A DNA stretch of 64,000 nt, from the NCBI GenBank assembly GCA_964385825.1, contig CAYLPX010000002.1:98876-162875 (forward strand). The letters are read 5' to 3'. Made by a program: the position numbers and the translations under genes. Numbering within the stretch: position 1 is the stretch's first letter; every line of letters begins with the position of its first letter. The notes under the pieces were generated by a model that was given only the letters and a program-made list of their open reading frames with translations, had not been told where the DNA came from and ran no database searches. This DNA is from an uncultured Candidatus Saccharibacteria bacterium. GTDB taxonomy: Bacteria > Patescibacteriota > Minisyncoccia > Phycocordibacterales > JAKFXT01. Below, in pieces: positions 48,691-56,897 of this stretch.

Positions 48691-49872
48691 TTAGGAACTA
48701 AATGAGCGAAGGAATTTTGCCATGGTTCCCATTTCATCGGTGTGGATAGTTGCAACTATAGTGCTGCTATGGGGGCTACTAATAATACTGTCTTCATGCA
48801 GAGCTCGAGCATTTTTAGATTTTTCTAATTTAATATTGAAACAGGAGAGGTGAGTTACGATTCGTTCACGAATAATAGAAGATCGCTCACCGATTGTGCC
48901 TGAAAATATGAGAGCTTCTAGTTTGCCGAGTGAGATAGTGAGGCGAGAAATTTCCTCTGCAATACTCATAGTAAAATTGGTAATAGCAGTATGAGCGTTT
49001 TTCTCGCCACGCTCTTCAAGTTCTAGGAGTTGTGGTATGTCTCCACTTGATCCTGAAATACCCTTTAGCCCACTTTCTTTGTAAAGGTAGGTGAGGGTGT
49101 CATTTGGCGAAAGCTTTTTCTCTTGCATAAGTGCGAGGAGTGCTCCAGGATCAACATTGCCTGATCGAGTAGACATAACAACTCCACCAAGGGGAGAATA
49201 GCTCATAGATGTAGCAACACTCTTGCCGTTATGGAGTGCGGTGACACTACTTCCACCACCCAAGTGACACACAATAGTGGTAGTGGGTACACTACCAAGC
49301 AGAGTTTCTATTTTAGGAACAATGGATTGAAGAGAAATTCCATGATAGCCAAAGGGCCTGAGGTCGTAGGTTTCGCAGTCGGTTTTGGCAAAGGGGAGGG
49401 GACGAGTATTTCTATCAATACTGTTATGGAATTCACTATCGGATATAGCCACTAAACGACTCTGGGGCAACTCTTTTTGTAGTTCCTGAAGCGTAGTAAG
49501 TGTCGGTGTAATGTGGAGAGGGTCAAGTTCAGCCTTACTTTTGAGCTTCTCTACATAAGCTTCTGTTACTAGTTGGCTTTGAGTAAAGTAAGTGCCTGGA
49601 GCTACTACTCTAATAGCAACATTGCTAATCTGCTCTTTTGAAACAGTTAGTTTATTGTGTAATGCGAGCAGTATGTAGGGAAGACTTCGCTCGTAATCAG
49701 TCGCTGAAAGAGGAACTGACCCCACCTCACTACTAAAGGTTTCGTTTGAAATATAATCAAGTGCTCGTTTTTCTATATGGAAAAAAGCAACACATCCCTT
49801 AGTAGTATAGAGAGCATACTTTTTTGAAGCACTACCGAGATTTACTATGAGTGAATAGGTTTCCATTGCCAT
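48691..49872 (-). CDS. ackA: acetate kinase
   Basis: The N-terminus is LIVNLGSASKKYAL (the VNCGSSS-type motif) and the C-terminus contains VCHLGGGSSVTA. Confidence 0.85.
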   Translation of the reverse strand: MAMETYSLIVNLGSASKKYALYTTKGCVAFFHIEKRALDYISNETFSSEVGSVPLSATDYERSLPYILLALHNKLTVSKEQISNVAIRVVAPGTYFTQSQLVTEAYVEKLKSKAELDPLHITPTLTTLQELQKELPQSRLVAISDSEFHNSIDRNTRPLPFAKTDCETYDLRPFGYHGISLQSIVPKIETLLGSVPTTTIVCHLGGGSSVTALHNGKSVATSMSYSPLGGVVMSTRSGNVDPGALLALMQEKKLSPNDTLTYLYKESGLKGISGSSGDIPQLLELEERGEKNAHTAITNFTMSIAEEISRLTISLGKLEALIFSGTIGERSSIIRERIVTHLSCFNIKLEKSKNARALHEDSIISSPHSSTIVATIHTDEMGTMAKFLRSFSS

Positions 49873-52214
49873 AATTCTATTTCTTCCGGATCAACTCCAT
49901 GCGTTATGATGTATTGCCTATGAGACGCTAGCTTATCGTTGTATAGCTCGATGAGTCTGTCGGCAGTAGGGCCATCGAGTACCTTTCGAGCCTTAAGCGC
50001 GGCAAAGGCATCAAGGGCTAAATGATAGCGACTTGTTTTATTGCGAACGTGCATATCAAAGGGGGTAGTAGTAGAACCATTTTCAATATATCCATGCACA
50101 GTGAAGCGCGAGGTGTCTTTGTAATCGAACAATACTTGTTTCAGTGTTTGTGGGTATCCATGGAAATTGAAAATAACAGGCTTATCGGCAGTAAAGAAAC
50201 TTTCAAAGTCTATTGGTACGCGGCAATTTTCATTCCCTATACCAATAGTTGAGAGTTCTAGAATATTTACAAAGCGGACACGGACTTGTGGAACTTCAGC
50301 TTTGACGATAGAGATTGCAGCGAGCGCTTCTTTGGTTAGGTAGTCACCAACTGCACTAAAGACGATATCAGGGTTTTCCTCGCTGGCAAATTTCCAAGTA
50401 GCAAGTCCAGTCGCGAATTCCTCCTCAGCCTCCACCGGTGTAAGCCAACGTGGCTCTTGGGTTTTGCCGGCGGCGATGATATTGATACCGTTTTTAGATT
50501 CAAGGGCATGCTTTAGAGTAACAAGCATACTGTTGCCGTCGGCAGGAAAGAAGACGCGTACAAAGCAACCACTTTTTTGAAGCATGTCAGTGATAAATCC
50601 GGGGTTTTGATGAGAGAAACCATTGTGTTCTTGTCGCCAGCCAGAGGAAGTGAGGATGTAGTTAAGTGAAGGAACATCGCCTCGCCATGGCACTTCGCGT
50701 GCGGCTTTCAAGAACTTGGCGTATTGATCAGCCATACTGGTTATAACTTGAATGAAAGCTTCGTACGAGGCAAACACAGCGTGACGCCCAGAGAGTGTGT
50801 AGCCTTGGGCTAATCCTTGAAGGGTGTGCTCAGAGAGCATTTCTATAACTCTGCCGTCCCTGGCATAGTCTCTGTCCCATGGGAAAAGAGGGGCAAGGAG
50901 TGCTCGCTTGGTTGTTTTAAAAATATCATCTATTTTGTTGGAGTAAGTTTCATCGGGTGAGAGGACGCGGAAGTTTTTGTTCTTCTCATTGAGTTTAAAT
51001 ACTTCCGCCATGTAGAGTCCCGCGCGGCGCATACTACTTGAGCCAATGAAGCCAGGGTAGGGAACCTCTTCAGAGAACTTTGTAACTTCAGGTAGTATTA
51101 GCGGCTTGTAAACATCGCTAGTTGGCATAGTGTGGGAATTATCACCCATGCGGAAGTGGAGATCGGGAATAATATCTTTTATTTCTGCTATAGGACCCAT
51201 AGCTCTATCAAAGACCTCGTTGAATTTGTATGAGGCAAGCCATGCTTCAACTAGCTCAAGCTCTTCTTTGTCAGTTTTTGCATTTGCTCCTACAACTTGA
51301 TGTGAGAGACAGTTGTCTTCTATCTTTTCTCCATGGAGAGTTTTGATTCCACCCCAGCCCTTGGGGGTCCTCATAATGATCATGGGGAGTTTTGGTGGCT
51401 CAGTTTGGGTTGTAGTGCGAGCGGTTTCTTTAATAGTGTCTATTTTGCTAAATGAGTCAAAGAGGGCTTCGGCCATGCTCTTGTGTAAATCCTTGCCGTC
51501 AACCACTATAGGATCATAGCCATATCCTTCGAAAAGCGTTTTTAGATCTTTATTACTCATGCGGCCATACACCGTGGGGCCTGAAATTTTGTAACCATTA
51601 AGGTGAAGCACGGGGAGCACAACACCATTTGTTTTGGGATCAACGAATTTATTTAAATGCCAGGCAGTAGCTGTGGCTGCCGTTTCAGCCTCACCGTCTC
51701 CAATAAGGCATACAGCAGTTAAGTCAGGATTATCAAGTACTGCTCCATATGAAGTAGAGAGGGAATATCCAAGCTCACCACCCTCAAGGATCACTCCTGG
51801 GGTTCCAGGATTGCTATGACTTGGGAAACCATAAGGCCAACTAAAATTTTTAGCGATATAAGCAATGCCAGTTTCATCCAAGGTAGCACTTTCATAGTAG
51901 CGCTCCAGTGTTCCTTCAAGAAAGAGATTGGCTTGAAGGGCGGGGAAACCGTGTCCAGGCCCCAGAACAAACATGACACTGCGGGGGTTTTCTTTGATGA
52001 AAGCATTTAGGTGCGCATAGAGAAAATTGATGCCCGGACCTGTGCCCCAATGTCCCAAAAGACGCGGTTTAATATGGTCAAAGGTAAGTTTCTGTGTGAG
52101 AAGAAAATTGTCTTGCAAATAGATTTGAGCAGCAGTGAGGTAGTTTACTACACGTAAATACTTTTTTATTGACTCAATATGAGTAATGGTTCTTTTCATA
52201 AATATATTATACAT
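49845..52214 (-). CDS. xfp: xylulose-5-phosphate/fructose-6-phosphate phosphoketolase
   Basis: GHWGTGPG, EGGELGYSL and the TPP-binding GDGEAETG motif in a 789 aa protein. Confidence 0.9.
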   Translation of the reverse strand: MYNIFMKRTITHIESIKKYLRVVNYLTAAQIYLQDNFLLTQKLTFDHIKPRLLGHWGTGPGINFLYAHLNAFIKENPRSVMFVLGPGHGFPALQANLFLEGTLERYYESATLDETGIAYIAKNFSWPYGFPSHSNPGTPGVILEGGELGYSLSTSYGAVLDNPDLTAVCLIGDGEAETAATATAWHLNKFVDPKTNGVVLPVLHLNGYKISGPTVYGRMSNKDLKTLFEGYGYDPIVVDGKDLHKSMAEALFDSFSKIDTIKETARTTTQTEPPKLPMIIMRTPKGWGGIKTLHGEKIEDNCLSHQVVGANAKTDKEELELVEAWLASYKFNEVFDRAMGPIAEIKDIIPDLHFRMGDNSHTMPTSDVYKPLILPEVTKFSEEVPYPGFIGSSSMRRAGLYMAEVFKLNEKNKNFRVLSPDETYSNKIDDIFKTTKRALLAPLFPWDRDYARDGRVIEMLSEHTLQGLAQGYTLSGRHAVFASYEAFIQVITSMADQYAKFLKAAREVPWRGDVPSLNYILTSSGWRQEHNGFSHQNPGFITDMLQKSGCFVRVFFPADGNSMLVTLKHALESKNGINIIAAGKTQEPRWLTPVEAEEEFATGLATWKFASEENPDIVFSAVGDYLTKEALAAISIVKAEVPQVRVRFVNILELSTIGIGNENCRVPIDFESFFTADKPVIFNFHGYPQTLKQVLFDYKDTSRFTVHGYIENGSTTTPFDMHVRNKTSRYHLALDAFAALKARKVLDGPTADRLIELYNDKLASHRQYIITHGVDPEEIELWQWKPIHS

Positions 52215-52269
52215 AGAAATAGAGTCACTCTAAGGGCGTTATTAGACTAATTTCTGATCATTTCTGCTT

Positions 52270-52740
52270 TTGCTATACTATGGGCATATGACCGAACCCA
52301 TCTTTTTTTATGAACATGAGTTTTACCCCTTCTCTAACTTCTCATCATTCACTCTAGAGTGGAAGGGGAGACGATGGATGACATCGGAGCAGGCATATCA
52401 AGCAGAAAAATTCGAGGCAGCAGAAATGAAAGATTATATTTTTAATGCTCCCTCCGCTCATGAAGCTTTTAAATACGCCGAGAAGAACAGAGCTCTGCGT
52501 CTAAAAGAGTGGGATACTATTAAACTCCAAATTATGAAAGAAATCCTTCATGCCAAGGTTAAACAACACCCATATGTGCTCAAAAAGTTATTGGAGTCAG
52601 GTGAGCGCGAGCTTATTGAGGATTCTTGGCGGGATGATTTTTGGGGTTGGGGACCAAACAAAGATGGTGCTAACCACCTCGGTAAACTTTGGATGGAGGT
52701 GAGGAGGGAAGTGAGAGAGTCGTTAAGAGATGCTATCTAA
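52270..52740 (+). CDS. NADAR (YbiA/DUF1768) domain protein
   Basis: The start FYEHEFYPFSNFS is followed by WMTSEQAYQAEKF and DDFWGWGPNKDGANHLGKLWMEVR, which are the hallmark NADAR motifs. Confidence 0.75.
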   Translation: MLYYGHMTEPIFFYEHEFYPFSNFSSFTLEWKGRRWMTSEQAYQAEKFEAAEMKDYIFNAPSAHEAFKYAEKNRALRLKEWDTIKLQIMKEILHAKVKQHPYVLKKLLESGERELIEDSWRDDFWGWGPNKDGANHLGKLWMEVRREVRESLRDAI

Positions 52741-52745
52741 TATCT

Positions 52746-53273
52746 ATGATCTATATATATCATTCATTGCCAGAAAATATGACGGGGACCATGCTTTATC
52801 CGCTCAGTGAGCTCGCAGTTGAGCATCCACAGCTCTTTAATGCCCATGAACAGAAATATACTAAACGCCCACGAGTGCTTACTAATGCTATTCCACACCT
52901 TGGATGTTTTTGGAACGACGTACTTCATTTCACGGCCGTGCACCCAGAGGTACTTAAAGAGGTGTTGGCGCGCGCCGGCTATACCAAACCACTTCACTAT
53001 GTGCAGGTGAATCCTATGCTGCTCTCAAAAGAAAAGACCATCATTTTCCTCAATAAAGTATTAAGTAGTGGAGCTGCTTCAACGACAGCTGATGATTTTG
53101 TGGCATTCGATCCAGAAACAGTAGATAAATATGCCACTATTCCACTTGAAAATGAGCAGTACTACAAAGAAAATTTAGAAAAAGGGGATGAGTTCCTCAT
53201 CTATCATGGTATCCCACACATACTCTATAAGGGCCGACTTGATATTGGCGGTATGCCAATTATTACGGTGTAA
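52746..53273 (+). CDS. uncharacterised NADAR-associated protein (possible ADP-ribosyltransferase-like fold)
   Basis: It starts 4 nt after the NADAR stop, so the two are operonic. The C-terminal DEFLIYHGIPHILYKGRLDIGG is reminiscent of the DarT EFLVH motif and the Tpt1 FLYHGT motif. The N-terminal LSELAVEHPQ resembles the Tpt1 LSFVLRHKPE motif. The true start may be 52791. Confidence 0.3.
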   Translation: MIYIYHSLPENMTGTMLYPLSELAVEHPQLFNAHEQKYTKRPRVLTNAIPHLGCFWNDVLHFTAVHPEVLKEVLARAGYTKPLHYVQVNPMLLSKEKTIIFLNKVLSSGAASTTADDFVAFDPETVDKYATIPLENEQYYKENLEKGDEFLIYHGIPHILYKGRLDIGGMPIITV

Positions 53274-53674
53274 TGAAAAGACTAAGCCTAATATTCTTTG
53301 TTTCGTTTGTGCTCAATCTATTGTGGGAGCATGCTCACGCTGGACTCTATAGTAGTTATAAAGGTGGTTCTATAACTAACTTTATTCTTTTTCATGCAAG
53401 TCTTGGTGACGCAGTACTAATTACAGCTCTTGCAGGACTTTATTTATATACTTCTTTTTTTAAAAAACATATTTGGTTTATGGCTCTTCTGGCGCTTCTG
53501 CTCGCTACTCTCATTGAATGGTATGGTCTTTGGAGTGGTCGCTGGGTTTATAGAGACGTTATGCCCATTGTGCCCCTGCTTCAAGTTGGACTCACTCCGT
53601 TTTTGCAACTCATGATTACTGGGTATGTAACTAAGTGGCTGGTAGGGAAGATGGAAAGTTATAAACAGGCCTAA
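53273..53674 (+). CDS. hypothetical polytopic membrane protein
   Basis: Four TM helices. Confidence 0.35.
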   Translation: MKRLSLIFFVSFVLNLLWEHAHAGLYSSYKGGSITNFILFHASLGDAVLITALAGLYLYTSFFKKHIWFMALLALLLATLIEWYGLWSGRWVYRDVMPIVPLLQVGLTPFLQLMITGYVTKWLVGKMESYKQA

Positions 53675-56393: not shown

Positions 56394-56502
56394 TAAGGTA
56401 GAGCAGTAAAAGTAAAGACCCCTACTCGTAAGTAGGGGTCTTTACTTTTACTGCTCCTATGGTTATATAAAAAAAGTGTGTAACCAACGGAGGAGGTGAA
56501 TC

Positions 56503-56760
56503 ATGGCACTCAGGACTCCCTTTGGGAGATCTTCAAAAGTTTTTCATGAAGACGGCGAGGCGAAAGAAGAGGTTCCTCGTTTTAGCCGTCCCAAAGCGGC
56601 GCCAAAAAGGGTGTTGACCCCTGAGGAGCTCGCTTTTCGCGCGGCGTATGCACGGTGCGGGGCCGATGGGAATCGGCAGGGGCTCATCAATGCCGGCATC
56701 ATCACTCCGCCCTCGTCGATGGCGAACCCCACTTTTCGCTTCCGCAGATCCTTTCATTAG
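56503..56760 (+). CDS. foreign high-GC small basic protein (85 aa)
   Basis: A GGAGGAGG RBS lies upstream, the ORF is GC3-rich, and a GC-rich terminator follows. Confidence 0.35.
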   Translation: MALRTPFGRSSKVFHEDGEAKEEVPRFSRPKAAPKRVLTPEELAFRAAYARCGADGNRQGLINAGIITPPSSMANPTFRFRRSFH

Positions 56761-56783
56761 CGGGGGTCGTAACGTTCCCGCTG

Positions 56784-56808
56784 GCCCGCCTTCGGCGGGC
56801 TTTTTGTT
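56784..56808 (+). terminator. GC-rich rho-independent terminator
   Basis: GCCCGCC-TTCG-GCGGGC followed by TTTTTGTTT. Confidence 0.6.
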
Positions 56809-56897
56809 TACGAAAGGAGCTTGACTTTTGAGTATTTCCCATGATAGTATTACCCGTATCAGCAAGCCCCGAGAGGGGTTTTTAAATTACAAAAATT

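Follow-up and report, generated by a model that had tools for sequence, protein, structure and literature searches.

This study concerns two adjacent genes in a 64,000-nucleotide (nt) stretch of contig CAYLPX010000002.1, from an uncultured Candidatus Saccharibacteria bacterium; the whole stretch is referred to below as the window. The first gene encodes a NADAR protein, and the second, here called the partner, belongs to a large protein family without a name. An earlier sequence-only reading had placed both open reading frames (ORFs) on the + strand, where they are indeed found, and had suggested that they could form a DarT1-NADAR-like toxin–antitoxin or defense pair. The features of the locus, with protein lengths in amino acids (aa) and the basis of each call, are as follows.

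52288..52740, + strand: NADAR gene, YbiA subfamily, 150 aa, with an alternative TTG start at 52270 (Pfam, NCBIfam, YbiA 2b3w)
52746..53273, + strand: partner gene, 175 aa, member of a large unnamed family, predicted DarT-like, that is, ADP-ribosyltransferase (ART)-like, fold (homologues, AlphaFold2, Foldseek)
53273..53674, + strand: gene for a 133-aa predicted membrane protein (ORF list, sequence)
52215..52287, no strand: divergent intergenic region of 73 nt, from the phosphoketolase gene (− strand, start 52214) to the NADAR gene (coordinates)

The NADAR ORF spans 52270–52740 (+) when read from a TTG; an ATG at 52288 gives the 150-aa protein and is the start chosen by two gene callers on identical contigs. 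The partner ORF (52746–53273, +) begins with ATG, encodes 175 aa ending in DEFLIYHGIPHILYKGRLDIGGMPIITV, and closes with a stop codon at 53271–53273; its start at 52746 is correct because homologues begin at the same Met. The spacing between the NADAR stop and the partner ATG is tight, as had been claimed, at 5 nt instead of the 4 nt first given, and it suggests co-transcription of the two genes.

The NADAR gene and the partner family

The product of 52288–52740 is a YbiA-type NADAR protein, in agreement with the sequence-only reading. It matches Pfam NADAR PF08719 (E = 4.4e-29, 102.3 bits; gathering cut-off 35.1) and NCBIfam TIGR02464 (95.7 bits; cut-off 73.7). Its best solved relative, covered over the whole core, is E. 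coli YbiA (2b3w, E = 5.5e-20), a riboflavin-intermediate N-glycosidase; the match to the solved non-YbiA NADAR 8bau is much weaker (E = 2.8e-4). The last-strand Glu of the YbiA subfamily is kept, with LIEDSWRDDFWGWG aligned to LVEHTENDAYWGDG of YbiA (LIEDS vs. LVEHT). At this position Glu marks the YbiA subfamily, Asp the DarT1-associated BC4488 NADARs, and His the phage NADARs (PMC11125620, PMC11543638). Since PF08719 already matches from residue 6 of the 150-aa protein, the N-terminal extension typical of DarT1-linked NADARs is missing. The window NADAR thus has in common with E. coli YbiA a match over the whole core, the subfamily-defining Glu, and the missing extension. Membership in the BC4488 group was rejected: Glu replaces Asp, the extension is missing, and the neighboring protein matches neither PF14487 nor PADLOC models. 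The NCBIfam anti-phage NADAR model NF053876 scored 69 bits against a cut-off of 240, and the only PADLOC candidate model was PDC-M42C (E = 2.7e-5).

In E. coli, ybiA shares a LexA-controlled operon with dinG (PMC11125620), whereas the window NADAR lies between the phosphoketolase gene and the partner. In vitro, YbiA-type NADARs strip guanine and cytosine bases of ADP-ribose (PMC11125620, PMC12945103). The first gene encodes a YbiA-subfamily NADAR N-glycosidase with intact catalytic residues; by analogy with the tested YbiA-type enzymes, it should cleave ADP-ribose from guanine/cytosine bases and/or act on reactive riboflavin intermediates.

Conservation of the pairing was assessed at 160 independent loci of the partner family—80 from species-representative genomes and 80 from metagenomes—with at least 600 nt of upstream flank in 131 loci and at least 600 nt of downstream flank in 135. 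The window NADAR matched at none of the 160 (0 of 80 genome and 0 of 80 metagenome loci; tblastn, E ≤ 1e-3), and a search of the family loci at E ≤ 50 returned nothing convincing. The pair is carried only by 100%-identical contigs of the same population. A macrodomain was absent from the recurrent neighbors of family members at these loci.

The closest distinct relative is a sister species at 62% identity (loci L001 and L172–L175), in which the genes run in the order acetate kinase, phosphoketolase (xfp), a slot, partner, membrane protein, DUF378, malic enzyme, and SIMPL. In place of NADAR, the slot contains a 73-aa ORF that is unrelated to it and has a single hydrophobic segment (L173:3778–3999; also in L172, L174, L175, and L001), and no NADAR remnant was found in the sister species by tblastn at E ≤ 50 or by BLASTP of the 73-aa ORF. 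The gene order is otherwise conserved, which marks the position ahead of the partner as a variable slot. The sister-species partner also has Glu at position 149 (GDEFLL); this species has the Glu and no NADAR, so Glu149 does not travel with NADAR.

A type II toxin–antitoxin adjacency across homologues was rejected, with NADAR at 0 of 160 loci and a syntenic sister-species site that is without it. NADAR and partner are neighbors in one lineage only, which makes a toxin–antitoxin pair unlikely; the partner is a solitary gene in about 1,000 clusters with varied neighbors, which makes an antitoxin-dependent toxin very unlikely. The genes around the locus are chromosomal housekeeping genes, a further point against the proposed pair. 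The defense reading fared no better, as the partner has no PADLOC match and its family hardly occurs on plasmids or in phages. Known anti-phage defense systems (PADLOC, NCBIfam) were likewise set aside: the NADAR protein reached only PDC-M42C at the E value given above, and NF053876 fell below its cut-off. A toxin–antitoxin or defense pair is not supported, and annotation of the locus as DarT-NADAR-like is unwarranted.

The partner family is large, undescribed, and unannotated, and most of its members come from Patescibacteria. Neither the single partner sequence nor a profile found a match among the Pfam, NCBIfam, PADLOC, PHROG, and PDB sequence collections; Pfam gave none for the window protein at E ≤ 1 and no recurrent family among 142 diverse family members even at E ≤ 10. 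All 60 homologues from a first search were labeled hypothetical. When 1.84 billion representatives of clusters at 50% identity were searched with the family profile, 1,076 matched at E ≤ 1e-3, 483 of them at E ≤ 1e-30. A pattern scan of 185,579 species-representative genomes found 172 relatives, mostly in Patescibacteria; other hosts, as labeled, were Ignavibacteria, Cyanobacteria, Thermoleophilia, Elusimicrobiota, Anaerolineae, and DPANN archaea. Among mobile elements the family appeared in 1 of 50,697 phage records and 5 of 72,556 plasmid records. The sole phage member (Stenotrophomonas phage TS-12, MW302330.1; L169:4001–4570) is 34% identical over 99% of the query and is annotated as hypothetical, as are its neighbors.

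Only one neighbor recurs: a class I S-adenosylmethionine (SAM)-dependent methyltransferase of the TehB-like or Methyltransf_11/25 kind, found at 21 of the 160 loci, or about one in eight. In 16 of these it is the immediate neighbor of the family member, and in 14 it lies upstream on the same strand. These loci include L030, L095, L104, L146, L163, L008, L073, and L059; a further case is L170:4723–5430. Among cluster representatives, methyltransferase domains are fused to the family domain at the N terminus (P0063) or the C terminus (P0089), and a family member on a Cytobacillus megaplasmid has a TehB-like methyltransferase immediately downstream. The neighboring methyltransferases fall below every NCBIfam equivalog cut-off. 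Nudix and GNAT genes lie near the family member in a few loci. The methyltransferase/Nudix/GNAT pattern fits better with a non-toxic enzyme whose substrate is a small molecule or nucleic-acid end than with a conflict system.

Other contexts were also seen. At L033, L040, and L077 (labeled Woesearchaeota), and at L034 and L148, the family member is flanked, with 4-nt overlaps, by an RsmB/F-like RNA methyltransferase gene on one side and a conserved gene for about 149 aa on the other. This arrangement is a second conserved context, specific to its clade, and again includes a methyltransferase. Two more apparent fusions of the family domain occur in P0152 and P0078: one carries a C-terminal SnoaL-like domain, whereas in the other the family domain comes after a TerC membrane fragment, perhaps through an error in gene calling.

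Residue conservation was counted in a 142-sequence family alignment, with positions numbered as in the window protein. The conserved elements are a Tyr-His in β-1 (Y5 in 138 sequences, H6 in 140), a Lys-Tyr..Arg in a helical insert (K37 in 134, Y38 in all 142, R41 in 140), a Trp-Asn-Asp before β-2 (W56 in 142, N57 in 131, D58 in 140), and a Pro-His (P157 in 133, H158 in 140), along with G14 (141), P19 (141), P67 (141), and G163 (137). Position 149 is Glu in 4 sequences, Arg in 62, and Lys in 25, and the position after it is Pro in 106. The strand around it has Pro, Leu, and Leu at the neighboring positions and conserves no acidic residue.

The residues singled out by the sequence-only reading exist in the window protein, and most of them are not conserved across the family. 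The Glu of DEFLIYHG (E149), taken as a catalytic-Glu region, is kept in just those 4 members, Arg or Lys being usual. In the YHG read as an LYHGT-like Tpt1/KptA motif, the His and the Gly are each kept by about a quarter of the family (H154 is His in 38 of 142, G155 is Gly in 33 of 142), and LSELAVEHPQ, likened to Tpt1, is variable except for L20 and L23. NDVLHFT and IPHILYKG were also considered as a mirror of the DUF952 motifs GFIHLS and FPHLY and rejected; the likeness is not significant, and H61 is Phe in 42 of 142 members. The case shows that a motif likeness seen in one sequence may rest on residues that its family does not keep.

Predicted fold of the partner and comparison with known ADP-ribosyltransferases

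AlphaFold2 models of the window partner (model 1; predicted local distance difference test score, pLDDT, 92) and of P0058, a member about 35% identical (model 2; pLDDT 95), were compared by Foldseek with 350,542 PDB chains. The top matches of model 1 were Thermosipho DarTG (7omu), CopC, E. coli DarT1 (8baq), and cholera toxin A1, all weak (E = 0.2–0.5; template-modeling (TM) score about 0.4); ART toxins further represented in its list were CopC, cholera/LT A1, and PltA. Model 2 returned DarTG first (E = 0.025, probability 0.84), CopC second (E = 0.05), and Thermus DarT third (7omv; E = 0.07, probability 0.85, TM 0.47), after which the list drops to noise (TM about 0.1). Across both models the DarT matches range from E = 0.025 to 0.2 and from TM 0.41 to 0.47. 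In a model search of BFVD the best match was an unnamed protein (E = 8e-5), followed by giant-virus ORFans, with a phage DarT at rank 14.

DarT (DUF4433, PF14487) is the single-stranded DNA ADP-ribosyltransferase toxin of DarTG. An hhalign comparison of the family with 115 DarT sequences was non-significant (probability 0.3%, E = 0.2), yet the alignment is full-length and collinear: it pairs Y5-H6 with Y12-H13, P67 with P77, E149 with E160, and P157 with P168, and it puts R41 (140 of 142) two residues from DarT R51, near R51/R53 (DarT residue roles as given in PMC9967889). The family hidden Markov model (HMM) again selected Thermosipho DarT as its best match in the set of 115 (E = 0.006). A control hhalign comparison of DarT with DUF952 was equally blank. 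Since DarT and DUF952 are both accepted Pfam ART-clan families, the silence of hhalign is uninformative and is not evidence against an ART fold.

The proposed resemblance to DarT is therefore supported at the level of the predicted fold only, DarT being the top PDB neighbor of two models, and fails on motif evidence. An ART-like, DarT-like fold for the partner is plausible on these models. The two families are of similar length, and several elements are collinear: the N-terminal Tyr-His strand, the Arg of the helical insert, a hydrophobic β-2 with a conserved Pro after it, and, at the C-terminal end, a hydrophobic strand that leads into Pro-aromatic/His. They differ in that the catalytic Glu of DarT is replaced by Arg or Lys in most partner-family members, and in that the partner family has no conserved macrodomain or NADAR neighbor and consists of solitary chromosomal genes, mostly in Patescibacteria. 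Profile-based membership in DarT/DUF4433 (PF14487) was rejected, with no Pfam or PADLOC match and no listing of PF14487 for the 142 members at E ≤ 10. The DarT catalytic Glu and Arg pair (E160 and R51, with E160 as in Thermus DarT) was rejected as well; an Arg is present near R51, and the Glu is not conserved in the partner family.

Tpt1/KptA proteins are characterized by an LYHGT-type H-x-T motif, an R-H-R-R tetrad, and an N-terminal winged-helix domain. The partner is only 175 aa long, so there is no room for the extra Tpt1 domain. Membership in Tpt1/KptA (PTS_2-RNA) was rejected, as there is no Pfam match and the YHG residues are not conserved; Tpt1 structures are absent from the Foldseek top 50 lists of both models. 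DUF952 (PF06108 / 2o0q) was rejected too: there is no Pfam match, and hhalign against a narrow DUF952 alignment (Neff 1.8) gave a probability of 0.4% with 8–10 columns aligned. The only local match, DVLHFTAV with GFIHLSA, is not significant, and neither model's Foldseek list contains the DUF952 structures 2o0q, 2o0p, or 2jqn. The comparison that the sequence-only reading had proposed with DUF952 and Tpt1 thus gave no link, whether by hhalign (DUF952), Pfam, or Foldseek. Tpt1/KptA and CC0527 (DUF952), which have an H-H-h motif, are nonetheless, like the partner family, small proteins without a catalytic Glu and with conserved His residues, and they are non-toxic ART-fold proteins; no sequence, profile, or fold evidence ties the partner to them. 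The function of DUF952 is unassigned, and small-molecule substrates have been proposed (PMC8120803). By any defining feature examined, the partner is not DarT, Tpt1, or DUF952.

The NADAR-first gene order had been described as unusual, which it is not: the YbiA-YarT pair reported from three myxobacteria has it too (Cihlova et al. 2024, PMC11125620). There the gene for the small ART toxin YarT is preceded by that of a YbiA-type NADAR, which neutralizes the toxin; YarT toxicity and rescue by YbiA were demonstrated experimentally (PMC11125620). As at the window locus, an extension-free YbiA-subfamily NADAR stands directly upstream of a small uncharacterized protein whose predicted fold is ART-like, with weak support in the case of the partner. 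The likeness is limited at the level of residues, where YarT (compared by description) has a conserved H-Y-E motif, whereas the partner family conserves the His and not the Glu. YarT also clusters with Rhs C-terminal toxins (HYD1 clade), whereas the nearest, weakly matching fold of the partner is DarT. The window pairing, for its part, is confined to one lineage and known here from sequence alone.

Readings of the pair

We favor, at a probability of roughly 0.6, a lineage-specific juxtaposition in which a YbiA-type NADAR stands beside a member of an undescribed family, DarT-like but Glu-less, whose genes are normally solitary or found with a SAM methyltransferase. Two separate stand-alone enzymes would have become neighbors in one Patescibacteria-like lineage, where the NADAR fills the variable slot that heads the probable operon; they would form no dedicated toxin–antitoxin module. 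From the solitary occurrence of the partner in very varied contexts, we infer a non-toxic transferase that would bind NAD+ or a nucleotide and act on a small molecule or nucleic-acid end.

Several points weigh against this juxtaposition. The NADAR search covered 3–4 kb per side with a single NADAR query. The 5-nt spacing, with NADAR upstream and a small ART-fold gene downstream, is exactly as in YbiA-YarT (PMC11125620), and the window protein is among the few family members with Glu where hhalign pairs DarT E160. The putative non-toxicity of the partner rests on distribution. Every fold or profile similarity to DarT is sub-significant, with no Foldseek PDB match at E ≤ 0.001 for either model and an hhalign probability of 0.3%, and the ART-like label is itself not secure.

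A rival reading is that the partner lies outside the ART superfamily—its likeness to DarT being coincidental, its fold and function some other undescribed ones, such as those of a partner of small-molecule methyltransferases, and the NADAR an unrelated neighbor. No significant sequence or profile link joins it to ART families (Pfam for 142 members at E ≤ 10; hhalign 0.3% for DarT and 0.4% for DUF952), its family profile has no PDB sequence match, and no acidic residue is conserved at the DarT Glu position. All Foldseek PDB matches lie at E > 0.01 with TM < 0.5 and a root-mean-square deviation of 8–10 Å, and the best BFVD match (E = 8e-5) is unnamed and followed by giant-virus ORFans. However, hhalign also misses the DarT–DUF952 link, so its silence is uninformative, and coincidence would have to explain why DarT/DarTG ranks first among 350,542 chains for two independently built models and why the family HMM independently selects the same Thermosipho DarT. 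A clear gap separates the three ART matches of model 2 from noise, other ART toxins fill the model 1 list, a phage DarT appears in the BFVD list, and the conserved motifs are collinear with those of DarT. We regard a non-ART partner as unlikely, though a serious contender.

A lineage-specific functional ART-NADAR module appears improbable to us. In such a module, whether for toxin–antitoxin action, growth control, or anti-phage defense, a partner with Glu149 would ADP-ribosylate a nucleobase and the NADAR would reverse the modification. Its order and tight spacing would match YbiA-YarT (PMC11125620), and YbiA-type NADARs do hydrolyze base-linked ADP-ribose in vitro (PMC11125620, PMC12945103). 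It would also agree with a + strand free of terminators between the genes, with DarT as the nearest solved fold for two models, and with the hhalign pairing of E149 with DarT E160 and of H6 with H13. Yet NADAR is found at 0 of the 160 independent family loci, and the sister species retains Glu149 with the unrelated 73-aa ORF in the NADAR slot. A gene that stands alone in about 1,000 clusters, among varied neighbors, would not have lasted as a toxin, and the surroundings are housekeeping genes; the partner has no PADLOC match, and the anti-phage NADAR model reaches 69 bits vs. 240. We give very little credence to a variant in which the partner family is an active ART branch from a DarT-like ancestor, with H6, R41, D58, and H158 replacing the Glu, and the co-transcribed NADAR reverses its product—an ADP-ribosylated base, nucleotide, or metabolite—in a non-toxic regulatory cycle of an ultra-small bacterium.

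If the fold assignment on which the favored juxtaposition draws is true, the partner would represent a large family of Glu-less, DarT-like non-toxins often coupled to small-molecule-type SAM methyltransferases, and a wider chemistry would be expected of DarT-like ART folds. The physiological substrates of orphan YbiA-type NADARs are still unknown (PMC11125620); given that fold, the partner family would offer them a candidate partner.

Surroundings of the locus

The gene at 53273–53674 encodes a predicted multi-pass membrane protein with a weak DUF6142 match (E = 0.0064, below cut-off). Its start overlaps the partner stop by 1 nt, so the two genes probably share one transcript. A terminator scan found no + strand terminator-like sites between the NADAR, partner, and membrane genes, and all three are probably co-transcribed; the promoter and terminator scans gave matches at the level of shuffled controls. 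The 73-nt interval 52215–52287 would be their promoter region, as its position ahead of the three genes suggests. The sole promoter-like match near it lies on the − strand (52228–52201), and the match count is not above shuffled expectation. In the sister species, too, the membrane gene follows the partner directly, but it does so nowhere else in the partner family; it is context and no part of the NADAR system.

A horizontal-transfer island at the locus was rejected, as there is no GC or skew anomaly, and no second copy of NADAR, partner, DarT, or DUF952 was found across the window. Directly upstream of the locus, 48691–52214 (−) carries acetate kinase and 789-aa phosphoketolase (XFP) genes that overlap by 28 nt, a phosphoketolase/acetate pathway gene pair common to the window and the sister species. 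A scan of 46–60 kb gave no tRNA or Rfam match above threshold, including in the roughly 500 nt without genes that separate the SIMPL-domain gene from secE (56394–56897). That stretch has a G+C content of about 0.50, vs. about 0.42 in its surroundings; it contains only overlapping ORFs on both strands, and gene callers place no gene there on identical contigs.

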